The notes beneath the pieces are model-generated. The model ran no database searches. It had not been told where the DNA came from and saw only the letters and a program-made list of their open reading frames with translations. From Parcubacteria group bacterium Gr01-1014_31 (GTDB lineage: Bacteria > Patescibacteriota > Patescibacteriia > Buchananbacterales > GWA2-38-13), in NCBI GenBank assembly GCA_007376135.1, contig VMFR01000001.1, positions 452,360 to 516,359 of the forward strand: a stretch of DNA of 64,000 nucleotides, read 5' to 3'. Positions 3,060-61,537 of the stretch are shown piece by piece. The first letter of the stretch is position 1. Every line of letters begins with the position of its first letter. The translations under genes were made by a program, and so were the position numbers.

Positions 3060-4925
3060 TCAGTAGGCTTCGCACCCCAGCCTGTCGCTGGTCGGGTCAA
3101 CCCCCAAGGATGCCCCGGGGTACGGCGGCCGTGCGCCCCCCAGCAGCTGGAAACGGTTGATGAAATCCGCGTCCTTGAGATCCTTGACCCCGTCGTCGTT
3201 GGCGTCCATCGCGTCGTCGCAGTTCGGATACACGTAGCACAGCCCCTGGTTGACCTTGCACTGGAGGGAATTTGGCTGCTCGCAGCCGGGCGCGGCCGAC
3301 AGGCACGTCACGTGGTCTTTCACCGACTGTCCGTCGGCAATATCCACGCGGCCGTCGTGGTTGGCGTCGCCGCGGATGAACGCCACATCGGTGTGATTGG
3401 TATTGCCGAGGGCATACCCCGGCTGTGCCGCCGGCATCGCGTTGACCGCCTTGCTGTACGGGAACGTATACACCTGAACATTAAGCCGTCCCCGGGTGGT
3501 TCCATAATCAGAACGGAAATAATCAACGACGACTTCAAGCGTGCGGTCGCGGTTTAAATCGGCCACGGCGACACCGACGAGCGCGGAGTAGACAGGTGAT
3601 TGCCAGATCGCCACGCCGCGCTGGTCGAAAATAACGACTCGGGTCTCATCCATGCTCCCGACCGATTTTCGCACGATTGCGATCACCTCTTCGGCCGGCC
3701 CATCATCCATGTTGTGCAGTCCAACAATGGACACTCTATCTGCGGCGCCGTAACGCACCGTCAGCTGCGGCTGGCCGCTCAAAGAGAACGACTTTACGGT
3801 ATTATGGCCATCAGTGACTACTATTGCGTTGTTATGGACGACTGGGCGGCCAATTACCTCATCGTAGGTCGGCGTAATAGCGGCGACCCATAACGGGGTG
3901 CCATCCTGATCGAGGGCAACAAGCCTCCCATCGTCGTCGACATAGACCAACTCGGTATACAAATCGCTGTCGACGTTCGCCACAGCAACCTCGGACGACG
4001 CACCGCTGCGGCTCCACAGTCTTTTCCCGTTACCATCAATGACAAAGAACGTTGAGAGATTATTCGCAACGATCTGATGCCGCCGGCTTTCCACATCCTG
4101 CAGCTGAGCGGCGACGGGGGCGATCGACCCGCCGGCAAACTCCCAGATCTGCGCTCCTTCAGGGCTGAACGCCACAGTTTTCTGACGTTCAGGGTTACCA
4201 TTGGTAGCGACAACTTCCAAACGGTCATCACCGTCTAAATCCATGACGACCGGTATCAGATACGAGCCCCCCGCCGACCAAAGTTTTCGCCCGCTGGCAC
4301 CGTCCAGCGCCACCAACCCGGCATTCGTAGTGCCAAATGCGGCGTACACCACCTCCTGCGTGCCATTGCGGTCAAGGTCGGCGACCACCGGAGAACGGTA
4401 CACGGCCCGGCCGATGGCGTCCGCACGCCACAACTCACGGCCATTGGAAGAGATCACCACGAGCTCATACTGGTCGGATTCGCCCGCCAGGAGCACTTCG
4501 AGCTGTCCATCGCCGTTCACATCCGCGACCACCGGGTGCGGGGAGTACACCGAGCTGCCATCGGCACCCTGGAAAGACCACAATGGCCGAGCCACTTCCT
4601 GGCAGCTCGCGGTGCAACCCACGCCCGGCGGGTCGCACTGCTCGCTTCCCTCCACCAGACCATTGCCGCACACGGCCGTGTTCACGTTGACGTTGGTATT
4701 GCCGAAGTTGGTGATGGTGCCGTAGTTCAGCCCGCTATTCACCGCGGTTCCAAGCGAAGCCATCCGGAAACGGCCGGGATATAAGCCCTTGGCCACGTTG
4801 ACACCCAGCAGCGCCGCATAAAATCCGCCGGCCACGGGCAGCACCGTCAACGCAACGAGGGTCAAAAATGCGGTTGCGACAACTGGCTTGGTGCCGGTCT
4901 GCGTTTCCAAGAATGGACGTAGCAT
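3060..4925 (-). CDS. secreted FG-GAP repeat protein with N-terminal Cys-rich repeat and C-terminal dockerin-like Ca-binding repeats
   Basis: Motifs DLDGDDRLEVV and DLNRDRTLEVVVD (FG-GAP). C-terminus has DANHDGRVDIADGQ and DANDDGVKDLKDAD (dockerin-like DxNxDGxxxxxD x2). VCGNGLVEGSEQCD is a Cys-rich repeat. The track start 4952 lies inside the putative -10 box, so the start is placed at the internal ATG at 4925. Confidence 0.5.
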   Translation of the reverse strand: MLRPFLETQTGTKPVVATAFLTLVALTVLPVAGGFYAALLGVNVAKGLYPGRFRMASLGTAVNSGLNYGTITNFGNTNVNVNTAVCGNGLVEGSEQCDPPGVGCTASCQEVARPLWSFQGADGSSVYSPHPVVADVNGDGQLEVLLAGESDQYELVVISSNGRELWRADAIGRAVYRSPVVADLDRNGTQEVVYAAFGTTNAGLVALDGASGRKLWSAGGSYLIPVVMDLDGDDRLEVVATNGNPERQKTVAFSPEGAQIWEFAGGSIAPVAAQLQDVESRRHQIVANNLSTFFVIDGNGKRLWSRSGASSEVAVANVDSDLYTELVYVDDDGRLVALDQDGTPLWVAAITPTYDEVIGRPVVHNNAIVVTDGHNTVKSFSLSGQPQLTVRYGAADRVSIVGLHNMDDGPAEEVIAIVRKSVGSMDETRVVIFDQRGVAIWQSPVYSALVGVAVADLNRDRTLEVVVDYFRSDYGTTRGRLNVQVYTFPYSKAVNAMPAAQPGYALGNTNHTDVAFIRGDANHDGRVDIADGQSVKDHVTCLSAAPGCEQPNSLQCKVNQGLCYVYPNCDDAMDANDDGVKDLKDADFINRFQLLGGARPPYPGASLGVDPTSDRLGCEAY

Positions 4926-16359: not shown

Positions 16360-16469
16360 AACGAAAAAAAATCAAAATTCAAAAGGCAAAATTCAAAAAG
16401 ATGGTGGCAGGTATTCCGGCCCGAAATACTTTCAGGCCTCCAAACTTTTGAGTTTTGGCTTTTGACTTT

Positions 16470-16862
16470 TTACTTCGCCGCCTCGGCGTCCAGCCATCCC
16501 TGCAGGATGAGCATGGCTGCGGTGGCGTCATCCCGCCCGCGCATGCCGCGCTGTAAACGCTGTGCCATTTTGGTGCTCAATCGCTCGTCGGAAACGTGCA
16601 CCGGCAGCCTGGTCGTTGCCGCCAATTCCTGGGCAAATAATTTTATCGCCGCGGCCGAACTGCCTGCGAAGCCGCCAACGGAGATCGGCAAACCGACCAC
16701 GATCTCCTCGATCCCCTCATCCTGGCAGAGCGCAAAGATCCGCGCCAATAATCCTCGCTGGCCGCGGTTCTCCCAAATGGCCAACGGCACGGCGGGAGTG
16801 CCGGCGGCGGCCTTGGCCAAACCTACCTTGCGCTTGCCGTAGTCAATGCCAAGAATGGCCAT
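16470..16862 (-). CDS. ruvX: Holliday junction resolvase-like RuvX/YqgF
   Basis: MAILGIDYGKRKVGLA… is the YqgF N-terminus, with a conserved Asp/Glu pattern. Confidence 0.8.
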   Translation of the reverse strand: MAILGIDYGKRKVGLAKAAAGTPAVPLAIWENRGQRGLLARIFALCQDEGIEEIVVGLPISVGGFAGSSAAAIKLFAQELAATTRLPVHVSDERLSTKMAQRLQRGMRGRDDATAAMLILQGWLDAEAAK

Positions 16863-23584: not shown

Positions 23585-23590
23585 AACAGC

Positions 23591-23620
23591 AATTTCGATA
23601 TATCGATATTTCGAAATCTT
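23591..23620. repeat. AT-rich TCGA-containing 9-nt repeat block filling the rplF-rpsH spacer
   Basis: aatttcgatatatcgatatttcgaaatctt. 26 of its nt (1 mismatch) recur inside the fusA coding sequence at about 34956-34981. Confidence 0.6.
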
Positions 23621-28087: not shown

Positions 28088-28094
28088 AAAAGTA

Positions 28095-32752: not shown

Positions 32753-33100
32753 TTACTCGATCGGTTCAAAAAAATACTGGTCCGATGCGTTTTCTGCGGC
32801 GGTTGCCTCCGGCGCGGCTGGGGATGGCTCTTCTGGACCCCATGGCTGGGGTGCCCCGATGCCGCGGGATTCGGCGTCACGGGAAATATCGGCGGCGAGA
32901 TCTTTCGGCATGGCGAGCGGACGACGCTCCGCCAAGCGTTCGTACTCGTTGAGCGGCAGGATGACGTAGGCGGGGTTGCCCTCGTGATCCAGCACGATAC
33001 AGCGGTCGCCGGTGCGCTTGATGAACGCGATGATCTTTTCCAAACCCGTGGTCATAGGCGGCTTAGCGGCCCTTGGCGCGCTCGGTGTCATACTCGCCAA
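32753..33100 (-). CDS. hypothetical small protein between fusA and tuf
   Basis: 115-aa ORF (…[37 protein letters not shown]…) with an acidic Pro-rich tail. No recognised family. Overlaps the fusA 3' end by 38 nt. Confidence 0.3.
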
Positions 33101-35219
33101 TAAGCTTTTCGGCGACCTGGCGCGGAACGGGCTGGTATTCGTGGAACTCCATTGTGGAAGCGGCGCGACCCTGAGTCAGCGAACGCAGCTCGGTGGCGTA
33201 GCCGAACATCTCGGCCAGCGGCACCTCGCCGTCCACCACCTTGGTCTTGCCGCGGTCGCGCATTTCGGTGATCTTGGTGCGCTTGCTGTTGAGGTTGCCG
33301 ATGACCTCGCCCATGAACTGTTCCGGCGTGATGACCTGGATCTTCATGATAGGCTCGAGGATGACCGGGTTGGCCTTGCGGACGGCGGCCTGGAACGCCA
33401 TGCTGCCGGCGATCTTGAAAGCCGCTTCCGACGAGTCAACGTCGTGATAGGAACCGTCAAAAACAGCGGCCGCCACATCCACCACCGGGTAGCCGGCAAT
33501 GACCCCCCGAGTCATGGCCTCGGTAACGCCCTTCTCAATGGCGGGCAAAAATTCGCGCGGGATCAAGCCACCCTTGATCTCGTCCAAAAATTCGAATTCG
33601 CCGCCCCGCGGGCGCGGCTCCACCCGCAGCCAGCAGTGGCCATACTGGCCGCGGCCGCCGGACTGCCGGATATACTTGCCTTCAGCTTCGGCGCTGGCCA
33701 GAATGGTTTCCTTGTAGGCAACCTGCGGCTTGCCGACGGTCGCTTCCACCTTGAACTCGCGCTTCATCCGGTCGACGATGATCTCCAGGTGCAACTCGCC
33801 CATCCCCTCAATGATGGTTTGCATCGTTTCCTCGTCGGTATGCACCTTGAACGTCGGGTCTTCTTCCGAGAGTTTCTGCAATGCCACGCCCATCTTTTCC
33901 TGATCGGCCTTGGTCTTCGGTTCAATGGCCTGGGCAATGACCGGGTCGGGGAAGCTGATGGATTCTAGCAGGAGCGGGCTGCCCGGATCGCACAAGGTGT
34001 GGCCGGTAAAGGTATTTTTCAACCCGACAATGGCGGCGATCTCCCCGGCAAAAACCTCAGTCACATCTTCGCGGAGGTTCGCGTGCAGCCGCACAATGCG
34101 GCCGACGCGCTCCTGGTTGCCGGTGGTCGCGTTCAGCACGTAGGAACCGGCCTTGATGGAACCGGAATAGACGCGGAAGAAGCACAGCTTGCCCACGAAC
34201 GGGTCAGCAGCGATCTTGAATGCCAGCGCCGAGAACGGCTCAGTGTCGGACGCGTGGCGCTCCAAGGACTTGTTCTTGTCGTTGAGGTCGTGGCCCTGGA
34301 TGGACGGAACATCCAGCGGGGACGGCAGGTACGCGACCACGGCGTCCAGCAACAGCTGCACGCCCTTGTTCTTAAGCGCCGAACCGCAGAATACCGGCAG
34401 GATCTTGGAGGCAATGACGGCCTTGCGCAGCACGGGCTTGAGCTCCTCCACGGACGGCTCGTCGCCCGCCAGGTAGCGGTTCATCAATTTTTCATCGTGC
34501 TCGACGATGGCTTCCACCAGCTTGGCGCGCCACTTCTCGGCGGTCGCCTTGAGGTCCTCGGGAATGGCGATAACCTCCATATCTTTGCCCAGGTCGTCCT
34601 TCCAGATGAGGGCGGTCCGATCCAGCAGGTTCACGACGCCCTGAAATTTTTCCTCGGTGCCAATGGGGAGCTGCATCGGGTAGGCCGCTTCGGTCAGCCG
34701 CTCGTGGATGGAGGCCAGGTCCGCGAAGAAATCCGCCCCCATGCGGTCGAGCTTGTTGACGAACGCGACCAGGGGGACTTTGAACTTTTCGGCCTGGTGG
34801 TAGACGGTCTCGGACTGCGGCTCCACACCCGCCACGCCGTCAAAGACGACCACCCCGCCGTCCAGCACGCGCAAGCTGCGCTGCACCTCGGCGGTAAAGT
34901 CGATGTGGCCGGGGGTGTCGATGATGTTGATCTGGCAGGTCTCGATTTTTTGAGATTTCGATATGTCGATATTTCGAAATGTCGAAATTTCGTCCGGCCG
35001 CGGCCAAAAGCAGGTCACCGCGGCGGCCGTGATGGTGATGCCGCGCTCGCGCTCCTGCTCCATCCAGTCGGTGGTGGTATCGCCCTCGTGAACCTCGCCG
35101 ATCTTGTGCTTCTTTCCCGTGTAAAACAAAACGCGCTCGGTGACCGTGGTCTTACCGGCGTCAATGTGAGCGATGATCCCGATATTGCGGACGCGCTCGA
35201 TCGGATAGGAGCGGGGCAT
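33063..35219 (-). CDS. fusA: elongation factor G (with about 20-aa AT-rich in-frame insert between the G2 and G3 motifs)
   Basis: [18 protein letters not shown] and domains II-V. The insert [24 protein letters not shown] is encoded by AT-rich 9-nt repeats. Confidence 0.9.
34941..34992. repeat. AT-rich in-frame 9-nt tandem repeat block (TCGA-containing) inside fusA
   Basis: ctcgattttttgagatttcgatatgtcgatatttcgaaatgtcgaaatttcg. 26/27 nt match the rplF-rpsH spacer repeat. Confidence 0.6.
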
Positions 35220-44274: not shown

Positions 44275-45219
44275 CTAGAGGGTCGTAATTGGTCGCGACT
44301 GGACAATGAAAAATTTCTTCTTCGCGAACGCCCACTCGATATCCTGCGGCTTACTGTAATGACGCTCAATGTCAGTGCAGAGCTTCGCCAGTTCAACGAT
44401 CTGGCGGCCGGTCAATTTTTGCACCTCTCGTTTCTCTGCGGACACGGACCGCCACACGTTGCCGCCGCTAGATTTTCGTACCAGCATTTTTTCCTGCGCG
44501 GCAATGTTGATGTCGACCAGATGGAGGTCGCGCTTATCGATGACGTAGCTGTCGGGCGTGATCTGGCCGGAAACGATAGCTTCGCCCAGGCCGAACCCGG
44601 CCTCAATGATCATCTGGTTATAGTCCTTGGTCACCGGATGCACGGTGAAGGCGATGCCAGCAACCTCGGCCTGGATCATCTGCTGCACCACCACCGCGAC
44701 CGACACTTTTGACCGTCTCATTCCTTTCTCGTTGCGGTAAACAATGGCCCGCGGCGTGAACAGTGACGACCAGCACTTCTTGACATTGCCGAGCAAAATC
44801 TTTGCCGTTGTGTTCAGATAGCTCTCTAATTCTCCCGCCCAAGAGGCAACCGAGGAATCTTCGGCGGTTGCCGAGCTTCGGACCGCGACCAGCGGGCTCT
44901 TGAGCTGGCGGAAGCGGCCCAGCACGGCCGCACTGAGATCCTTAGGAAACGCTGCGTCGTGGATAAGGTCGCGGATGATTACTGACGCCCGCTCAACGGA
45001 ATGGACGTCGCGATAGTTGACCTTAGCCAACGCGGCCCTAATCTCTTGGACCAAGTCAGCGCCCTTCAAAAACTGTTCAAACGCGGCTGCCGTGACCACA
45101 AAACCTGGCGGCACCGGAATGCCCGCGCGCGTCATTTCCCCCAACGATGCCCCCTTGCCGCCGGCCAGATGCGCGTCGGTCTTTTTTAACTGTTCAAAAT
45201 CTAGGAGATAATCCACCAT
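44275..45219 (-). CDS. stand-alone PPDK_N-type ATP-grasp nucleotide-binding domain protein (PEP synthase / rifampin phosphotransferase N-terminal domain homolog)
   Basis: GGKGASLGEM, VPPGFVVT, VRSSATAEDS…SWAG, VAVVVQQMIQ, GFGLGEAIVSG, and QDIEWA. 314 aa, ending where a fused dikinase would continue. Confidence 0.75.
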   Translation of the reverse strand: MVDYLLDFEQLKKTDAHLAGGKGASLGEMTRAGIPVPPGFVVTAAAFEQFLKGADLVQEIRAALAKVNYRDVHSVERASVIIRDLIHDAAFPKDLSAAVLGRFRQLKSPLVAVRSSATAEDSSVASWAGELESYLNTTAKILLGNVKKCWSSLFTPRAIVYRNEKGMRRSKVSVAVVVQQMIQAEVAGIAFTVHPVTKDYNQMIIEAGFGLGEAIVSGQITPDSYVIDKRDLHLVDINIAAQEKMLVRKSSGGNVWRSVSAEKREVQKLTGRQIVELAKLCTDIERHYSKPQDIEWAFAKKKFFIVQSRPITTL

Positions 45220-45228
45220 ACCGTCAGC

Positions 45229-46710
45229 CTATCGTTTTTTCACCAATTTGACCACGCCGCGATTTGCATCCACCTCAACCTCATCGCCATCCTGGAACAC
45301 CCTCGTCGCAATCTTGGTACCGATGATGCAGGGTTTGCCGAGCTCTCGCGCGATAATCGCAGCGTGGCTGGTTACACCGCCGACTTCAGCAATAATCGCT
45401 GAAGCCAATTTCATCGCCGTGACAAGTCGGGGGTTTGTCGTATGGGCGACGAGCACATCACCTTTCTCCATTTTTGTAATATCTTGCACTGTATCCACAA
45501 TTTTTACTAGCCCCCTTGCTTTTCCCGGCGAACCCGTAGCACCTTTCAATTCTTTTATATTCCTCTCAATAACTGAAGTTTGGGCAAGCAGCCAATCAAA
45601 CAAATGTTGGGCGATCTGGCCTTGATATTCATCAATTATTCCATCATGAAAATAGAGGGCAAACATTTTCTTTCTTTGGCTGAGCAAGTTGGCGTTCACT
45701 GACGCGCCTTTTAAGGTCTTGATCATTTCAAGCGGCTTGAGAAATTGCACTTGTGTAAGCGACAGAAAATGTTCTCGGGCAATTTTACAAAGGAGCGGCT
45801 CCAAAGACCAATACAACAACCAAGAGGCATCAACGCGTAAGGCTTTCATGGTAGCGATCTCTTCAAGCAATTTCGCGATTCTCGTGGCTTCCTTTGATAA
45901 TTTATATTTTTTTACCATCTCTTTTTTCCGGCGGCGGATTTCCTGTCGATATTTCGTTTCAGGTTTTATATATTTTTTGGAATTTTTTTCTTTTCTGATG
46001 AGCTTCACTCGCTCTTCAAAATAGCCAACATCATACGCCGGCCCTTGCCAATTGTATCCCAACCATGCGTATTTCTGCCAGTGTTGCTTTATTTTCTTCC
46101 CTGGCGGCCTCCCTTCGATTAAACCCAAAAGGTCTTGCTCTTCTTTCTGCAAAAAACTGTATTGCTCGGGAGTGGTGATAACGGTAAATATTTCTCCAAG
46201 AGATGACCGAGACACGCTGTTTCCTTCCAAAATTTTCTTTAATTTATCTCCGAGCAACGAACGACCCATTTCCAACAAGTTAATTGCTTGTCCCCGAAAC
46301 CACAGATGATCGTGAATTTCATACAATTTGAAGTACATTTTAGCAAGCTTTCCATTTGCAATCTTATTAACATCAAGGCGTTGTAGGCGGCGGGATTCAA
46401 CCATGAGTTTTTGGCTTAAACTCCTGATCTCATCTAAAATGTTTTTTATAAAACCGGGTTTTTTTATATCCTGTGCAAGTATTTTTTTGCCAGCAATCTC
46501 CAATTCATCATCGAGATGGTACATGAAAATATCATTATTTTTAAAAACCCAAATCCCACGAAATATGCCGGTTTTGTACATTTTATTGAGCATGTACGCA
46601 TAGGCGATTAAGGCTGACTGGACTATCCAGAGCGGGCAATTCGGAATTTTCTCAAAAAGATCCCAGCGGTAAGATTGTATTTGTTTTTTTATATCCTTTA
46701 TCGTGTTCAT
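45229..46710 (-). CDS. PEP-utilising-enzyme mobile (phospho-His swivel) domain protein, paralog 1; AT-rich gene
   Basis: C-terminus GDVLVAHTTNPRLVTAMKLASAIIAEVGGVTSHAAIIARELGKPCIIGTKIA (phospho-histidine domain). The N-terminal 380 aa are uncharacterised and Lys-rich. About 38% GC against about 68% for neighbours. Confidence 0.6.
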   Translation of the reverse strand: MNTIKDIKKQIQSYRWDLFEKIPNCPLWIVQSALIAYAYMLNKMYKTGIFRGIWVFKNNDIFMYHLDDELEIAGKKILAQDIKKPGFIKNILDEIRSLSQKLMVESRRLQRLDVNKIANGKLAKMYFKLYEIHDHLWFRGQAINLLEMGRSLLGDKLKKILEGNSVSRSSLGEIFTVITTPEQYSFLQKEEQDLLGLIEGRPPGKKIKQHWQKYAWLGYNWQGPAYDVGYFEERVKLIRKEKNSKKYIKPETKYRQEIRRRKKEMVKKYKLSKEATRIAKLLEEIATMKALRVDASWLLYWSLEPLLCKIAREHFLSLTQVQFLKPLEMIKTLKGASVNANLLSQRKKMFALYFHDGIIDEYQGQIAQHLFDWLLAQTSVIERNIKELKGATGSPGKARGLVKIVDTVQDITKMEKGDVLVAHTTNPRLVTAMKLASAIIAEVGGVTSHAAIIARELGKPCIIGTKIATRVFQDGDEVEVDANRGVVKLVKKR

Positions 46711-48239
46711 GGTAGCAATGTTACAACTCCTCTGTTTGCATCTACCTCGACCTCATCGCCGTCCTTAAACACCTTCGTGGCGATCTTCGTGCCGATCACG
46801 CATGGGATATTCAACTCGCGGCTGACAATCGCCGCGTGTGAGGTAACGCCACCTTGCTCGGTGACGATCGCAGCGGCCTTTTTCATCGCCGACACAATGT
46901 CTGGGTCAGTGGCAATAGACACGAGGATATCACCCTGCTTCATCTTGGCCATATCCGAAGCGCGAATGATAATCTTGACCGTCCCCCGCGCATGGCCCAG
47001 ACAGGCTGGCTGGCCCCTGATCTCACGCACGTCAGTATCAACTATCCGTTCCACTGTCGAGAGATATTCCCTCGCGGTATCGCCGATCATGAGCTTATCG
47101 CACCCGCGTTCAGCGTAGTAAACCATGAGCTTCGTCCGCTCCTCCAGGACAGCGGGGTGGCAGATGCGCCGCAGCAGCATGGCCTTCATTTCTTCCGGCA
47201 AGACGCAGCGCACCTGCGCCTCGCTGATGCCGCGGCGGCGGGCGATCTCGCGGAGGATCGCCCCCATGTGATGCACGGCGAGCAGTTGCGCGTAACGCCG
47301 ATAAATTTTTGTCACCATGAAGTCGCCAAAAGACCCAAAGACCGCCGCCCATTGGCCATTGATCTTGAGCCGACGAAATAATTGCCGGCGTCGGCTCCGC
47401 GCCCTTACAAGCTCGCGGGTTTGGAGCCGCAGCTGTTCCTGCGGCGATTGGTCCTTGTCAAAAATCTCTTTGAGTTGGCGGAGGTAGTCCGCGATCGTGT
47501 ACTCCCCGCTCACCCAGAGGTGCTTCGTGTAGTAGTACTTGCGGCGGTGCGTCTCTAGCGACCGACGAATAGCGGGGGGAAACTTCGCCATTACAACTTG
47601 AGTATCCTTGTGTTTCAACGCCGCTTGCGCCGACTGATCACCCACAATCTTAGCCGCAATCTTAAGAAGCTGCTCATGCTCGATGTAGATGAGCGACTTC
47701 TTGGTCGGTTGTGTCAGAATGAGAAATGACTCAGTGATTCGCTCGTCGCTCACCCCTTTAGCCCGTAGGTACTCCTTCACCTTATCCGTGAGGTTGTTAT
47801 GGAACATGTCCGCGCCCACGGGAATCCAGCACCAAGTGTAATACGTCGAGTGAATTTCATTATGGCGCCGGTAGACGGCCCACAGCTGACGATCGGTTAG
47901 GCGATCGAGATTACGCTGCGGAATTTTATCGCAAAAGCGTCGCAGCTTGTCCGCCTCAACGATGATGTGACGGTTCACCCGAGCCGCATAACCAGGCTCG
48001 CCGACAATGCGCCGAGCGATATTTTCTCCCACGGCAAATGAATCCTGCTGGCCGAAATAAAACCACAAATGGTAGCCAACGTACTTGCTGACGATTTTAG
48101 CGTACGCCCGACCGGTGTGCTTGGCAAAGTCGTTGACGAACCCGTGCAGCCAAACGTTAGAGAAGAACAGATCGGCGTTGGGGATGTCTTCGCCCAGCAT
48201 CCAGGGATCTTTGTCGTGGTAGTGTTGAAGTGACTTCAT
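46707..48239 (-). CDS. PEP-utilising-enzyme mobile domain protein, paralog 2
   Basis: C-terminus GDILVSIATDPDIVSAMKKAAAIVTEQGGVTSHAAIVSRELNIPCVIGTKIA. 4-bp overlaps with both neighbours. Confidence 0.6.
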   Translation of the reverse strand: MKSLQHYHDKDPWMLGEDIPNADLFFSNVWLHGFVNDFAKHTGRAYAKIVSKYVGYHLWFYFGQQDSFAVGENIARRIVGEPGYAARVNRHIIVEADKLRRFCDKIPQRNLDRLTDRQLWAVYRRHNEIHSTYYTWCWIPVGADMFHNNLTDKVKEYLRAKGVSDERITESFLILTQPTKKSLIYIEHEQLLKIAAKIVGDQSAQAALKHKDTQVVMAKFPPAIRRSLETHRRKYYYTKHLWVSGEYTIADYLRQLKEIFDKDQSPQEQLRLQTRELVRARSRRRQLFRRLKINGQWAAVFGSFGDFMVTKIYRRYAQLLAVHHMGAILREIARRRGISEAQVRCVLPEEMKAMLLRRICHPAVLEERTKLMVYYAERGCDKLMIGDTAREYLSTVERIVDTDVREIRGQPACLGHARGTVKIIIRASDMAKMKQGDILVSIATDPDIVSAMKKAAAIVTEQGGVTSHAAIVSRELNIPCVIGTKIATKVFKDGDEVEVDANRGVVTLLP

Positions 48240-57749: not shown

Positions 57750-57841
57750 GCCGCCAGGTTGAAAATCCGCCGAAAGAAAGCTCCGGGATCGGTTGGAAGT
57801 AGGGTTCGGCAATCAAAATCTTGGGCCACCGGGTAGCCTAT
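57750..57841 (-). pseudogene. remnant copy of the 3' end (last about 30 codons + stop) of the GT-C membrane protein gene
   Basis: Minus strand encodes (AT)RWPKILIAEPYFQPIPELSFGGFSTWRPQ*. The current gene end at 59783-59875 encodes (VI)RWPKRLIAEPYFRQVPELSFGGFSTWRVR*. Differences are mostly synonymous third positions. Confidence 0.55.
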
Positions 57842-58819
57842 TCAGGCGGAACGAATCTGGCCCTGGTAGCGCTGATATGCTTGTTTTTTGAGCAGAAGTC
57901 GTCGCGCCCTTGTTGGGCTATACGCACCTCTTTTTTTTAGTAAATTTATTACGCTATCTCTCCTTGAACGGCTTTTACTCCCCATCGCCAATTTATTTCT
58001 CCCTAATTTCAAGCCGAGATGCTCGGCCCCGCTAGCGTAGGTGCGTATTTTCGTTTTTGCAGGGTTTACTGGAAGTCTCTGATTATTATCAAAATCAGAA
58101 AGGATTTTTTCCACTATTTTTACGACTGCCGAAATTTTTTCCTGGCTCACTCTGCTTGCGCTGATACCTATGTCGTCTATAAAAATCGCCACTCGAGGAT
58201 CATATTTTTTAAGGAGCTTTTTTACTTCCCGATCAAGGTGAATAAAGGTATCTAAATTACACCACACGGCTAATCGAGTAGAGGTTGCGAAACCTCGAGC
58301 AAGAGTTTTTTCTGTAGACATAGAACCCTTTTGGCCAACGGGAACGCAACATAGACTGGCCAATAGCCGTGATGCTCGGGGGCTACAGCCGCATTTTCTA
58401 TAGAAGAAAAAAAATACTCTCTGTTCACGAATCTGTTCAAAAAAATGCGTGATGTCGAGACTAGCTAAAATCCTCCCTCTCTCTTGCCCCAGTAGACTAC
58501 GGGCTGCTTGTATATGACTTCTGCCTGTCATGCCGCCAAAAATATAATTGGGTACGAGACGATCATGAGGTGCAAGAACCTTCTTATCAATCCGTTCGAG
58601 AAGCACGCCCAATGGAGTGCGGGCCGCACTACGCACAAACTTTCCTCTGTTAGGTTGAGAATTCTCGCTATTATCGCGCCAGTAATAATCAAAGTTACGA
58701 ATCACATCATTAATGAGTGTCAGTGCCTGCGGATAAGGTAAGGCGCTATCGCTAATCGTTTTTGCCAACTCATTCTTGCTACCAATCCTCAATCGCGGGT
58801 ATCGCGGACGGCTAAACAT
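57842..58819 (-). CDS. reverse transcriptase (retron/defence-associated RT-like, 325 aa), AT-rich
   Basis: RT motifs: IFGGMTGRSHIQAARSLL (2a), LDITHFFEQI (3), CVPVGQKGSMS (4, LPQGxxxSP-like), RVAIFIDDIGIS (5, xxDD), and NPAKTKI (6). No maturase or endonuclease domain. Confidence 0.7.
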   Translation of the reverse strand: MFSRPRYPRLRIGSKNELAKTISDSALPYPQALTLINDVIRNFDYYWRDNSENSQPNRGKFVRSAARTPLGVLLERIDKKVLAPHDRLVPNYIFGGMTGRSHIQAARSLLGQERGRILASLDITHFFEQIREQRVFFFFYRKCGCSPRASRLLASLCCVPVGQKGSMSTEKTLARGFATSTRLAVWCNLDTFIHLDREVKKLLKKYDPRVAIFIDDIGISASRVSQEKISAVVKIVEKILSDFDNNQRLPVNPAKTKIRTYASGAEHLGLKLGRNKLAMGSKSRSRRDSVINLLKKRGAYSPTRARRLLLKKQAYQRYQGQIRSA

Positions 58820-59135
58820 AGCGCTTTAAATATTTTGCCCTCACATCGATCAGATACAGCTGTAGTTGACTACCAACGTCAATCAGCGATTTTTCTAGCT
58901 GGGATAATTTTTTTGTGGATGAGGGACTATCGAGCAACAAGAACGGCGTAATCGAACTGGGTTGTACACCCAATTTGTCAGCAAGTTTGATGATAAAATT
59001 TTTGGATACCTCTTTTTGACCCGATTCGATCATCGCAACAAGGACAGTTGATACACCTAAAACATTGGCAAATTCACTCTGCGTTAAATCACTTTCATCC
59101 CGAATTTTTTTTATCAACTCCGGTAGAGTATACAT
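58812..59135 (-). CDS. XRE-family helix-turn-helix protein
   Basis: LTQSEFANVLGVSTVLVAMIESGQK is the Cro/C1-type HTH. Overlaps the RT start by 8 nt. Confidence 0.7.
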   Translation of the reverse strand: MYTLPELIKKIRDESDLTQSEFANVLGVSTVLVAMIESGQKEVSKNFIIKLADKLGVQPSSITPFLLLDSPSSTKKLSQLEKSLIDVGSQLQLYLIDVRAKYLKRYV

Positions 59136-59149
59136 AATGTAAATATGAC

Positions 59150-59600
59150 TAAGGGGTGGCTACATGAACCGCATGATGTCCATCACGATGCGAATGATCC
59201 AGATAATGATCCGAATGATTCGCAGAATGTAGACCAGCATACGTGCTAGCCACCCCTACACACGGAACGCCCAGACTAGAGTTTAGATTGGAGAAATGAG
59301 TTGCATTCATAGATAAGGGGTTTATTAATTAACCGACCTTTACCCAGGTGACTGATTACTCCAAAGCTTATGGCCATTTATTCCGAAATGCGGCGTTCCG
59401 GCGGAACTCACGGCCATAAGCTGTGAGCAATCATTAGACATCGACCTAATATCTTACAAGCACTTCCCTGCCCCTCGTCCTCCCCATCATCTCCTACACA
59501 TCTACTGGTTGTTTTTTTGAGGCAGATACTTTCGCTTGAGACAGCACCCGGGATTCCCCGGGGCAATAATTCATCCCCCCTACGGCACTAGCAGGAGAGA
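59150..59600 (-). ncRNA. candidate structured non-coding RNA region upstream of the HTH-RT operon (retron msr/msd-like or RT-associated ncRNA)
   Basis: 11-bp inverted repeat AGGGGTGGCTA…TAGCCACCCCT (59151-61 and 59247-57) brackets GGATCATT repeats. Further hairpins: GCTTATGGCC…GGCCATAAGC with an inner GTTCC-GGC-GGAAC; CCCGGG-attc-CCCGGG; AGACAC-ttaac-GTGTCT. No ORF of at least 60 aa with a plausible start. Confidence 0.35.
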
Positions 59601-59782
59601 GATCCAGACACTTAACGTGTCTAAAATCATCGGATTCAACGGCCATCACTCTACTCCGTTTTCAATGTACCGTGATTGAATCATATACTTTTCGTATATG
59701 AATGTCAACTGACTTATCCACAGAGCAAAACACGAGCTAGGGTGCCGCGAAGAGTAAAAATATTGACTTTGGTAAGAACATT

Positions 59783-61537
59783 TTACCTCACCCGCCAGGT
59801 AGAAAACCCACCAAAGGAAAGCTCGGGTACTTGCCGGAAGTACGGTTCAGCGATCAACCGCTTCGGCCAGCGGATGACCTCTTCGCGGCCGCCGTTCGGA
59901 TAGTCGTCGAGCCACAGGTACAGGAGGTAGTCGTCCCCGTCGCCGTACAGGATGAGTTGTTCGATGGGATCAAATACGTTCTTGCGGTGGAACCACTCGG
60001 AAAATTGCGCCGGGGTTTTCGCCAGCGCGAGTATGCGCAGATAGCGGAGGCGCTCGGAGAATCGGGCGGCCGGATGCGAGTAGTGCTGATTGTAGGAAAT
60101 GAACTGTGGCAGCGCAACCTGCGCCTGGAGCGGCGGGAAGAAACTCAAGGCCGTCCTCTTGGCGTCCTCCGGATGCGTGCGGAAATAGTCAGCAAAACGG
60201 GCGGCGGTAACGCTCCCCTGCCGCACTGCTGCTAAGCGCACGGCGGTGGACTCCTGGTCCAGCCACAGGCCGAACGGCAGCGATACGGCAATCGCGATCC
60301 AGGCGAGCAAAAATTTCGTCGCCCCCGTCTGCGGAACGGCGGCCGAAAATCGTTCCCGCAAGACCGCGGCAACGCGGGTGAAACCCTGGGCGGGTGCGCT
60401 TCCCGCGATCCAGACGGTCAGTCCATAGGCGGCGCCGTACGCCAGAATAATCTCCCCGAAAAACGTAAAGCCGCGCGCGCCCTGGAACGGCGCGTCGCCA
60501 AACATCGTCGCTACCAGCGTAACGGCCTGCCAGACGTAACACCCCAACAGCAGCTGCAGCGCGGGACGGATCAGCGGCCGCCGGCGATACGCGACCAACG
60601 CGACCAGCCCGACCCAGAGCCAGGCGCTGCGGGGCGTGAACTCCACGGGCGGAAAAAAATTGAGATCCGAGGCGATAAAGAACGCCGGCTGCCAATTCTC
60701 CATCCCATGCCGGACGTAGCTTGCCGCCAACGGCCACCAGTACCAGAGGGACCCCAAGGCGACAACACCCCCGATCGCTCCCCAGGAAACAAGCTCGCGC
60801 GCCAGCGACCGCGGATTCCGCCAGGGCAAGAACGTCAGCACCGCGATGCCGACCATCACAAACCACAGGTAGTACGTCGTGAACAACGCCGCCCCCAGTA
60901 CCCCGATGGCTAGCATGTGCAGCAACTGCCGCTCGCTGCCCGCCAAAAAACGCCGCACCACGGTGAACCACAAGAGAACCCCCAAAGCGGAGGCAAACTC
61001 ATACGGTTTGGCCAGCACCGACGGAAAATCCACGGCCAGGAACGGGGTGAGCGTCAACAGCAGCGGAAAGAGCGGATTGGCGATGGGCCCGTCCGAGTCA
61101 CGCCGGACCGTGCGCCAAAACCACCAGGAAAGCAGCGGAATGACGAGGGACGCAATGACCCCGGCAAGCTTGGCCGCCCCAACCCCCGTCAGACCAAACA
61201 TTCGGGCGATGCCGCCGATCGAATAAAACCACAGCGGCGGATAAAACGCCGGCAATTTGGCATACGTAAGATCATGCCCGATGCCGTCGGTAATGACCCG
61301 CTGGTAGAACGCCGTGGTCAACGCTTCGTCCCCCTGCAAGCCGCCGAACGGCAGAGGGGTTTGCCAGAGTATGACCACCTGCAGGGTAACGATGGCAGCG
61401 ATCACCGCACCCGCCGCCAGCAGGCATCGCCGCGCGATCTTGCGATTCGTCCATAGGCCCACCCCAAGCACAGCAAACAACAGCATCTTGCCGAACGCGA
61501 GGATATGAATCGTGGACGGCTGGAACGGTGGCAGCAT
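59783..61537 (-). CDS. polytopic membrane protein, GT-C-fold glycosyl/arabinofuranosyltransferase-like
   Basis: About 12 TM helices then a soluble C-terminal domain. Weak resemblance to AftA/GT39-type transferases. Its 3' end is duplicated downstream of the RT cassette. Confidence 0.4.
   Translation of the reverse strand: MLPPFQPSTIHILAFGKMLLFAVLGVGLWTNRKIARRCLLAAGAVIAAIVTLQVVILWQTPLPFGGLQGDEALTTAFYQRVITDGIGHDLTYAKLPAFYPPLWFYSIGGIARMFGLTGVGAAKLAGVIASLVIPLLSWWFWRTVRRDSDGPIANPLFPLLLTLTPFLAVDFPSVLAKPYEFASALGVLLWFTVVRRFLAGSERQLLHMLAIGVLGAALFTTYYLWFVMVGIAVLTFLPWRNPRSLARELVSWGAIGGVVALGSLWYWWPLAASYVRHGMENWQPAFFIASDLNFFPPVEFTPRSAWLWVGLVALVAYRRRPLIRPALQLLLGCYVWQAVTLVATMFGDAPFQGARGFTFFGEIILAYGAAYGLTVWIAGSAPAQGFTRVAAVLRERFSAAVPQTGATKFLLAWIAIAVSLPFGLWLDQESTAVRLAAVRQGSVTAARFADYFRTHPEDAKRTALSFFPPLQAQVALPQFISYNQHYSHPAARFSERLRYLRILALAKTPAQFSEWFHRKNVFDPIEQLILYGDGDDYLLYLWLDDYPNGGREEVIRWPKRLIAEPYFRQVPELSFGGFSTWRVR

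Follow-up and report, generated by a model that had tools for sequence, protein, structure and literature searches.

A 64,000-nucleotide stretch of the genome of Parcubacteria group bacterium Gr01-1014_31 (assembly GCA_007376135.1, contig VMFR01000001.1), referred to here as the window, holds two short AT-rich blocks: one in the spacer between the ribosomal protein genes rpsH and rplF, and one in frame inside fusA, the gene for elongation factor G (EF-G). Both blocks are arrays of tandem 8-bp near-palindromes. In the Candidate Phyla Radiation (CPR), such arrays are the flanking inverted repeats of gene cassettes that carry a small open reading frame (ORF) of the Pfam family PF05635 (23S_rRNA_IVP). 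On balance it is probable that both blocks in the window are solo, gene-less copies of the arms of such cassettes, harmless leftovers that resemble either intervening sequences (IVSs) or miniature inverted-repeat transposable elements (MITEs). The arrays can be called a variant of IVS-type cassettes and of in-frame selfish palindromic repeats for which no description was found in the searchable literature. No paper was found there on the exact repeat strings, and no description of flanking octamer arrays was found in the literature on PF05635 and four-helix bundles.

Octamer arrays and PF05635 cassettes

A sequence-only reading of this DNA had pointed out a 26-nucleotide string, ATTTCGATAT[A/G]TCGATATTTCGAAAT, that occurs twice, and this was confirmed. 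Across the whole window the string is found at 23592-23617 and 34955-34980, the two copies differing at one base, and it has no match in 100 dinucleotide-preserving shuffles of the window. A relaxed two-unit pattern finds the same two places only, where none is expected. Of the 34 nucleotides of the rpsH-rplF spacer, 26 belong to the first copy. The same reading had described the units as 9 nucleotides long, in a genome of about 68% GC. These two figures need correcting: Tandem Repeats Finder (TRF) gives a period of 8 (4.4 copies at 34958-34992), the unit is TCGAWATN, and the GC content of the window is 0.60. When TRF is run on a near-identical relative, the whole 51-nucleotide fusA block comes out as 6.4 copies of period 8.

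On the coding strand, the fusA array reads CGAAATTT CGACATTT CGAAATAT CGACATAT CGAAATCT CAAAAAAT CGAG, and the spacer array is a near-palindrome of three units, ATTTCGAAATATCGATATATCGAAAT. The units are contiguous 8-bp near-palindromes (TTTCGAAA / TATCGATA / TATCGAAA) with the family consensus TWTCGAWA; the octamer can also be written as the pattern TCGANATN, an array being two or more units. None of the 4096 possible four-unit combinations contains a stop trinucleotide on either strand, so the arrays are stop-free in all six frames, and since 8 equals -1 modulo 3, every frame encodes the same kind of peptide. Because it is stop-free in six frames, an array could be tolerated in the surface loops of proteins.

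The link to PF05635 comes from the genes that lie next to arrays. Among 102 small ORFs within 150 nucleotides of an array, PF05635 is the commonest Pfam family, with 6 members. Arrays stand directly upstream of a PF05635 ORF in nine CPR contexts, the focal species included. Eight of the nine have them on both sides, and in seven of these eight the two flanks pair as an inverted repeat. At L022, L036, L049, L012, L260, L270/L274 and L276 they stand both right before the start and right after the stop of the ORF. At L037 they abut the start codon, and the downstream flank is lost to the end of the contig. The neighbours of the cassette differ at each locus (pheS/nudix, ?/proS, hisI/dsbD, DUF4015/scpA, peptidase C39/gyrB), and no transposase was seen adjoining the PF05635 ORF of a cassette. 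One of these loci, L012, is labelled Bacteroidales; its PF05635 cassette and downstream gene are very similar to those of the Patescibacteria locus L049.

To measure how well the flanks pair, the duplex energy between the 60 nucleotides upstream and the 60 nucleotides downstream of the ORF was compared with shuffled controls. In seven cassette loci the flanks are complementary beyond the shuffles, with energies of -19.9 to -48.2 kcal/mol and z of -3.5 to -11.5. The strongest duplex is that of L036 (-48.2 kcal/mol, z -11.5), followed by L260 (-30.1, z -3.9), L270 (-25.8, z -4.5), L012 (-22.8, z -5.9), L022 (-22.3, z -4.5), L049 (-20.4, z -4.9) and L276 (-19.9, z -3.5). A more distant PF05635 gene at L102 (623-1024) has the same layout with the unit GGTATAC, a period of 7 and a flank duplex of -44.6 kcal/mol (z -6.2). 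The PF05635 gene at L044 (2506-3081) is flanked by the units TAGAAATG and TTGATATG with a period of 8. Since these two subfamilies carry other short units, the repeat unit varies with the PF05635 subfamily.

The focal species has a PF05635 protein of its own, P0245, which is 85% identical to the protein at L037 and is encoded on the focal 539-kb contig and on the Logan contig L259. The spacer array, the fusA array and the flank of this same species' cassette all contain the 15-mer ATTTCGAAATATCGA. Array-like DNA also encodes YIDIS[KT]F, a conserved peptide of this PF05635 subfamily, and in homologues that lack array-like DNA at this peptide the length of the protein is unchanged. Because the window itself holds no PF05635 gene, the connection of the two focal arrays to the family runs through the shared sequence family and through this locus elsewhere in the genome.

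The arrays are locally dense in TCGA, ATCGAT and TTCGAA, and the sequence-only reading had taken this density as a hint of a protein- or methylase-recognition array, or of a small mobile insertion. A cluster of targets for restriction-modification enzymes or methylases (of the TaqI, ClaI or BstBI type), or a DNA-uptake sequence, is very improbable. TCGA is slightly under-represented in the window, with 216 occurrences against 260 +/- 17 expected, and two arrays in 64 kb are far too sparse for an uptake sequence. In addition, the core of the L044 units varies (TAGA, TTGA) and the architecture is kept.

Functional RNA hairpins, promoters, terminators and known RNA families were also considered for the solo arrays and rejected. 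As RNA the solo arrays are self-complementary, and their folding is no better than that of shuffles (z -0.8 to -1.3). At neither array was a sigma-70-like promoter or an intrinsic terminator seen. An Rfam scan of the window matched no family to the arrays; its only matches were five tRNAs, and there was no rRNA gene.

The fusA insert and the spacers in related genomes

The EF-G of the window is 100% identical to that of Parcubacteria group bacterium Gr01-1014_31, encoded on a 539-kb contig. The fusA array lies in frame between the strand ending in ...VTCFW and INIIDTPGH, as had been noticed from the sequence. It had also been claimed that other EF-Gs lack the extra loop, and this is true in part. 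The segment from RGITI to DTPGH was measured in the 120 best homologues: it has 22 residues in 30 proteins, 28 in 22, 29 in 60, 33-35 in 7 and 42 in a single one, the EF-G of the window. It is therefore the longest of the set, but three of its four closest relatives (L001, L002, L003 and P0004, at 81-82% EF-G identity) have a shorter form of the insert, which makes a graded series. The excess over solved EF-G structures is about 20 residues for the Thermus protein, the length first proposed for the extra loop, and 13 residues for the gamma-proteobacterial type.

In L002 the loop is encoded by 33 nucleotides of ordinary, GC-rich, array-free sequence. L001 has 51 nucleotides and a three-unit version of the array, CGATAGAG CGAAATAT CGAAATAT CGAG, and L003 has the same length as L001 in a GC-rich sequence, CGAACGAT CGCAACCG CGAACCGT CG. 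P0004 is known from its protein only, and carries the peptide AISKSRNLE, as an array would encode. The assembly that holds L001, L037 and L063 (GCA_964373635.1) is titled 'uncultured Gammaproteobacteria', yet its EF-G is 82% identical to that of the window; it is probably mislabelled or mis-binned.

The structure of the window's EF-G was predicted with AlphaFold2 from 70 homologues (mean pLDDT 81.8). The model has beta-strands at residues 67-72 and 95-100, and between them residues 79-90 have a pLDDT below 50, in agreement with the surface loop that the sequence-only reading had proposed. Judged by this model, the insert sits in a surface-exposed, structurally tolerant loop. The length of this loop varies naturally, the segment from RGITI to DTPGH having 22 to 42 residues. 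Because excision would destroy the mRNA, the fusA copy is presumably translated. It would then add 13-20 residues, predicted to be disordered, to a beta-hairpin loop of the G domain that varies naturally, and would probably be neutral, with no host function needed.

An independent assembly from another project, GCA_030648715.1 (contig JAUSGZ010000053.1), provides a close comparison. Over 20.5 kb it has 91.7% nucleotide identity to the window; in fusA the figure is 96.0%, and the 72 nucleotides of the loop are identical. Its rpsH-rplF array has one substitution, GATCTCGAAAT... in place of GATTTCGAAAT.... Since an independent genome has the same 72-nucleotide loop, an assembly artefact is excluded for the fusA block. 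An assembly or sequencing artefact has the odd composition in its favour and nothing else, related versions are found in three further assemblies, and the chance of it is negligible. The fusA block is thus real and inherited; it predates the split of the two genomes, and its length has been stable since. Absence of differences in the loop, against about 2.9 expected in 72 nucleotides, is suggestive of constraint and below significance (P about 0.055).

The two genomes also bear on whether the array changes length. The sequence-only reading had argued that changes by whole units would stay in frame. With a period of 8 this does not hold, because slippage by one unit would shift the fusA frame and only changes of three units would keep it. 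The array is identical despite the 4% difference in fusA nucleotides, so fast variation in length is disfavoured. A contingency locus, in which slippage of fusA units alters the length of the EF-G loop or switches the gene, would fit a tandem repeat within a coding region. It is hardly credible here, where a single-unit change destroys an essential single-copy gene and two genomes with 96% identical fusA have the same array.

A third spacer differs between the two genomes. The rplB-rpsS spacer of GCA_030648715.1 is 26 nucleotides long and holds a two-unit array, GCTTTCGATATTTCGATATCTCAACT, whereas that of the window is only TACTTTT. The rplB-rpsS array is thus a presence/absence polymorphism, a gain or a loss, between close genomes. 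As for the rpsH-rplF spacer, it is mostly 1-27 nucleotides long in 26 of 31 other bacteria, those in which the start of rplF could be located. A metagenome scan with RpsH yielded relatives at 47-56% identity only, which were used for spacer lengths. Because this spacer is normally short, most of its length in the window is due to the array.

Other repeats occupy the same operon in a relative, L203, whose RplF is 82% identical. Its 85-nucleotide rpsH-rplF spacer is filled by the 7-mer AAAATTC, a second short AT-rich repeat family in the clade. In the window, the 7-mer forms the arms of an inverted repeat of about 30 nucleotides at 16360-16475 (AAAATTC x4.6 at 16367-16398, complement at 16444-16475), which encloses about 45 nucleotides and lies between two minus-strand genes. 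L203 also has hairpin-like inserts of 100-120 nucleotides in its rpsN-rpsH and rpsE-rplO spacers (1100-1225 and 3195-3335 of that locus), unrelated to the octamers. Because these inserts differ in sequence from the octamer arrays, the ribosomal-protein operon spacers of the clade collect several kinds of small palindromic inserts.

Another reading takes the arrays for operators, which would cooperatively bind a PF05635 pentamer or a MetJ-like ribbon-helix-helix repressor. Those at the cassettes would autoregulate the PF05635 gene, and the solo arrays would be further regulon or nucleoid sites. In every case examined the arrays abut the start codon of PF05635, and the unit tracks the PF05635 subfamily: TCGAAATA in one, GGTATAC in that of L102 and the pair of L044 units in a third. 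The geometry of tandem 8-bp palindromes fits met-box operators, and the rpsH-rplF array is kept in two genomes. Coding regions such as those of fusA, tsaD and pth are odd places for an operator, however, and no more than two arrays occur in the 64 kb. Of the two close genomes only one has the rplB-rpsS array, and neither focal array has a promoter-like site. We regard operators as unlikely, with a small but real chance of being right.

Table 1. Positions in the window of the octamer arrays and of the genes and spacers that bear or adjoin them. All genes bearing or adjoining the two arrays are on the minus strand.
Feature	Position	Strand	Basis or remark
rpsH-rplF intercistronic spacer, 34 nt: TAA-G-[array]-TGCTGTT-ATG	23585..23618	-	
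Solo array, 3 units	23592..23617	-	one substitution in second genome
rplB-rpsS spacer TACTTTT, array-free	28088..28094	-	second genome has 2-unit array here
fusA (EF-G, 718 aa), host gene of in-frame array	33063..35219	-	
EF-G codons 73-96, array-extended loop between G-domain strands 67-72 and 95-100	34932..35003	-	alignment; AlphaFold2 model
Octamer array inside fusA, ~6.4 units of 8 nt	34942..34992	-	TRF period 8; identical in second genome

Distribution and origin of the arrays

Runs of three TCGAWATN units were sought across 185,579 species genomes, and at least 118 loci match. Many of the matches listed come from Bacteroidales and further phyla and about two dozen from CPR genomes, one of which is GCA_964373635.1, the assembly that holds the L001 fusA; the focal genome is not in that list. 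Five further CPR proteins have an array in frame inside a Pfam domain envelope. These are TsaD (L043, 5 residues longer than PDB 8IEY), Pth (L028, 2 residues longer than 7WT6), the core of a class II aminoacyl-tRNA synthetase (aaRS; L036), a metallo-beta-lactamase (L111) and a prepilin peptidase of family A24 (L107). A PGA_cap protein (L034) has an array in its N-terminal linker. Because five further CPR proteins hold in-frame arrays, the fusA case is one instance of a recurrent phenomenon. Another kind of locus was seen in Spirochaetales, UBP6 and metagenome-assembled genomes from rumen (L006, L047, L073, L074, L100, L018, L099), where TCGAWATN arrays lie between GC-rich inverted repeats, gccgccg...cggcggc, or in higher-order tandem repeats of 57-65 bp. 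These arrays have no PF05635 gene within 8 kb, and may be a separate kind of element.

The reading we favour runs as follows. In CPR, a repeat family of tandem 8-bp near-palindromes supplies the arms of a cassette around a small PF05635 ORF, an Avd-like four-helix bundle. This cassette is laid out like an ORF-bearing rRNA IVS, or like a small element whose ends are inverted repeats. Solo arrays would be arms that remained once the ORF was lost, or arms that were copied alone via template switching or gene conversion, and such copies may persist at harmless places like short intercistronic spacers and the surface loops of proteins. We infer both this means of spread and its direction, from cassette to solo array rather than the reverse. 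One suggestion of the sequence-only reading had been that a small mobile insertion is tolerated in a loop of EF-G. The family is indeed dispersed, with a presence/absence difference between close genomes, in-frame copies in other genes and a loop predicted to be disordered, and these points support the suggestion in part.

Several observations weigh against this origin. The alphabet of units is small, which makes the 25/26 identity between the two window arrays weak evidence of direct copying. The iterated hidden Markov model (HMM) search found no PF05635 gene in the 64-kb window, and the cassette of the focal species (L259) has arrays upstream and none downstream. The filled and empty rplB-rpsS spacers share only CTTT...T, with no clear target-site duplication or clean boundary. 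PF05635 is not known as a recombinase, no enzyme that could confer mobility was identified, and the solo arrays fold poorly as RNA. The same pattern also turns up in Bacteroidales, Spirochaetales and other groups, where no PF05635 gene lies within 8 kb of an array, and viral contigs hold 37 octamer-array loci with the core TGCA, 11 with TCGA and 6 with ACGT.

The last two observations lend themselves to independent local microsatellites, in which octamers expand in place by hairpin-assisted slippage and their likeness is convergence within a small alphabet of units. Since the TGCA-core controls outnumber TCGA in viral contigs, octamer palindrome arrays can also arise by plain slippage, and control cores are counted as equally common or commoner there. 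The number of units in the fusA loop varies among lineages, and other AT-rich tandem repeats fill the spacers of relatives, as AAAATTC does in L203. Convergence would not readily put the same 15-16-mer at three loci of a 60% GC genome, one of them the flank of a cassette, nor would it tie arrays to PF05635 in nine genomic contexts. The 19-nucleotide difference at rplB-rpsS arose at a site whose empty form has no array-like seed, and no change in length separates genomes 4% apart in fusA nucleotides. Local expansion is, next to operators, one of the main rival readings, and unlikely as an account of the window arrays. A single widespread element across phyla was dropped as a candidate, as the iterated HMM search finds PF05635 only in CPR-type loci and the viral-contig controls are comparable.

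Going further than solo cassette arms, the PF05635 protein and the octamer arrays might form a self-propagating system, in which an oligomer recognises the 8-bp repeat in DNA or RNA form and helps the arms, whether or not the ORF goes with them, to be copied or to home into new sites. We hold this to be decidedly unlikely. If true, it would explain both the rRNA IVSs and the arrays in translation genes (rRNA, ribosomal-protein spacers, fusA, tsaD, pth, aaRS), and would give a first function to a widespread orphan family related to Avd, the accessory protein of diversity-generating retroelements (DGRs).

The arrays matter in other ways as well. Neither a function of PF05635 proteins and rRNA IVSs nor the way they spread has come to light in the 30 years since they became known, and they are now linked to miniature octamer-repeat copies inside CPR protein genes. 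The octamer array is a tractable signature for tracing gains and losses, and an 8-bp array is a defined ligand. Practical consequences follow for genome analysis: AT-rich in-frame blocks can pass for assembly errors or frameshifts, and they add non-homologous columns to the marker alignments used in CPR phylogeny (EF-G, TsaD, aaRS).

Two other parts of the window stood out by composition. A low-GC island (0.44-0.47) at 57751-59884 holds a reverse transcriptase (RT; 57842-58819, minus strand) and a small helix-turn-helix (HTH) protein (58812-59135, minus strand). These match the PADLOC models RT_VI (E 8e-30) and HTH_VI (E 4e-13), which points to a type VI retron. A 93-nucleotide direct repeat (57751-57843 and 59792-59884, 74% identity) lies on either side of the island. 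In its second copy it forms the 3' end of a gene for an AftA_N-like glycosyltransferase (59783-61537); this suggests integration into the end of a gene. Mutagenic replacement of the DGR type had come into consideration for the arrays, with an Avd-like PF05635 and an RT in the window, and was rejected: the RT is that of a type VI retron with an HTH partner, the repeats around it are not A-specific, and variation in the array units is not limited to adenines. The other part is a low-GC stretch at 44275-48239 with two paralogous ORFs (45229-46710 and 46707-48239), each ending in a PEP-utilizers mobile domain. A separate PPDK_N ORF (44275-45219) lies next to them, and the whole looks like a split pyruvate-phosphate-dikinase or an arrangement like that of phosphoenolpyruvate (PEP) synthase.

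Comparison with known systems

Met-box operators, the binding sites of MetJ, are tandem 8-bp palindromes, AGACGTCT. The octamer arrays are like them in being tandem runs of 2-6 contiguous 8-bp near-palindromes. They differ in sequence and in having copies inside coding regions as well, and no cognate repressor was identified.

MITEs and repetitive extragenic palindromic (REP) sequences are similar in another respect: each is a short, palindromic, non-coding copy that resembles the ends of a larger, gene-bearing element, and each occurs several times per genome and shows insertion polymorphism between close relatives. For the octamer arrays, the partner gene is PF05635 and not a transposase, and the arms are tandem octamer arrays rather than unique terminal repeats; at the one polymorphic site no clear target-site duplication is visible.

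The IVS of Coxiella is a described parallel. It carries an S23p (PF05635) ORF between inverted repeats and is excised by RNase III, and just upstream of the ORF it has tandem GACAGAT heptamers whose copy number differs by strain (PMC4990558). In CPR, 23S_rRNA_IVP ORFs have been found in insertions of rRNA genes (PMC11270868). The ORF-bearing 23S rRNA IVSs of Leptospira, Coxiella and Xanthomonas encode the same protein family as the full-length CPR cassettes, and both have an ORF enclosed by inverted repeats that form a stem, with tandem repeats directly upstream of the start. Both also have low GC relative to the host and a sporadic distribution. Like IVSs, the arrays are found inserted in translation genes, at points that accommodate additional sequence. 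The focal copies differ from IVSs in that they have no ORF and are only 26-51 nucleotides long, and they lie in a protein gene and an mRNA spacer instead of helices 25 or 45 of rRNA. The fusA sequence must be translated and not cut out, and the solo arrays are poor hairpins.

The in-frame copies have a parallel in Rickettsia. The Rickettsia palindromic elements (RPEs), which Ogata et al. are said to have described in 2000, are reportedly selfish repeats that lie in frame within protein genes. To our knowledge, RPEs have not been linked to a PF05635 cassette. They are about 100-150 bp long, in single units with no 8-bp periodicity and no sequence relation to the focal arrays of 26-51 nucleotides. 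The likeness is one of behaviour: a dispersed palindromic repeat with an open reading frame, found between genes and also in frame at surface positions of conserved proteins, in a host with a reduced genome. The octamer family likewise occurs in intergenic DNA and in frame in several unrelated CPR proteins. It would be a second, independent case, next to that of the RPEs, of selfish repeats that are translated in the essential proteins of a reduced-genome lineage.

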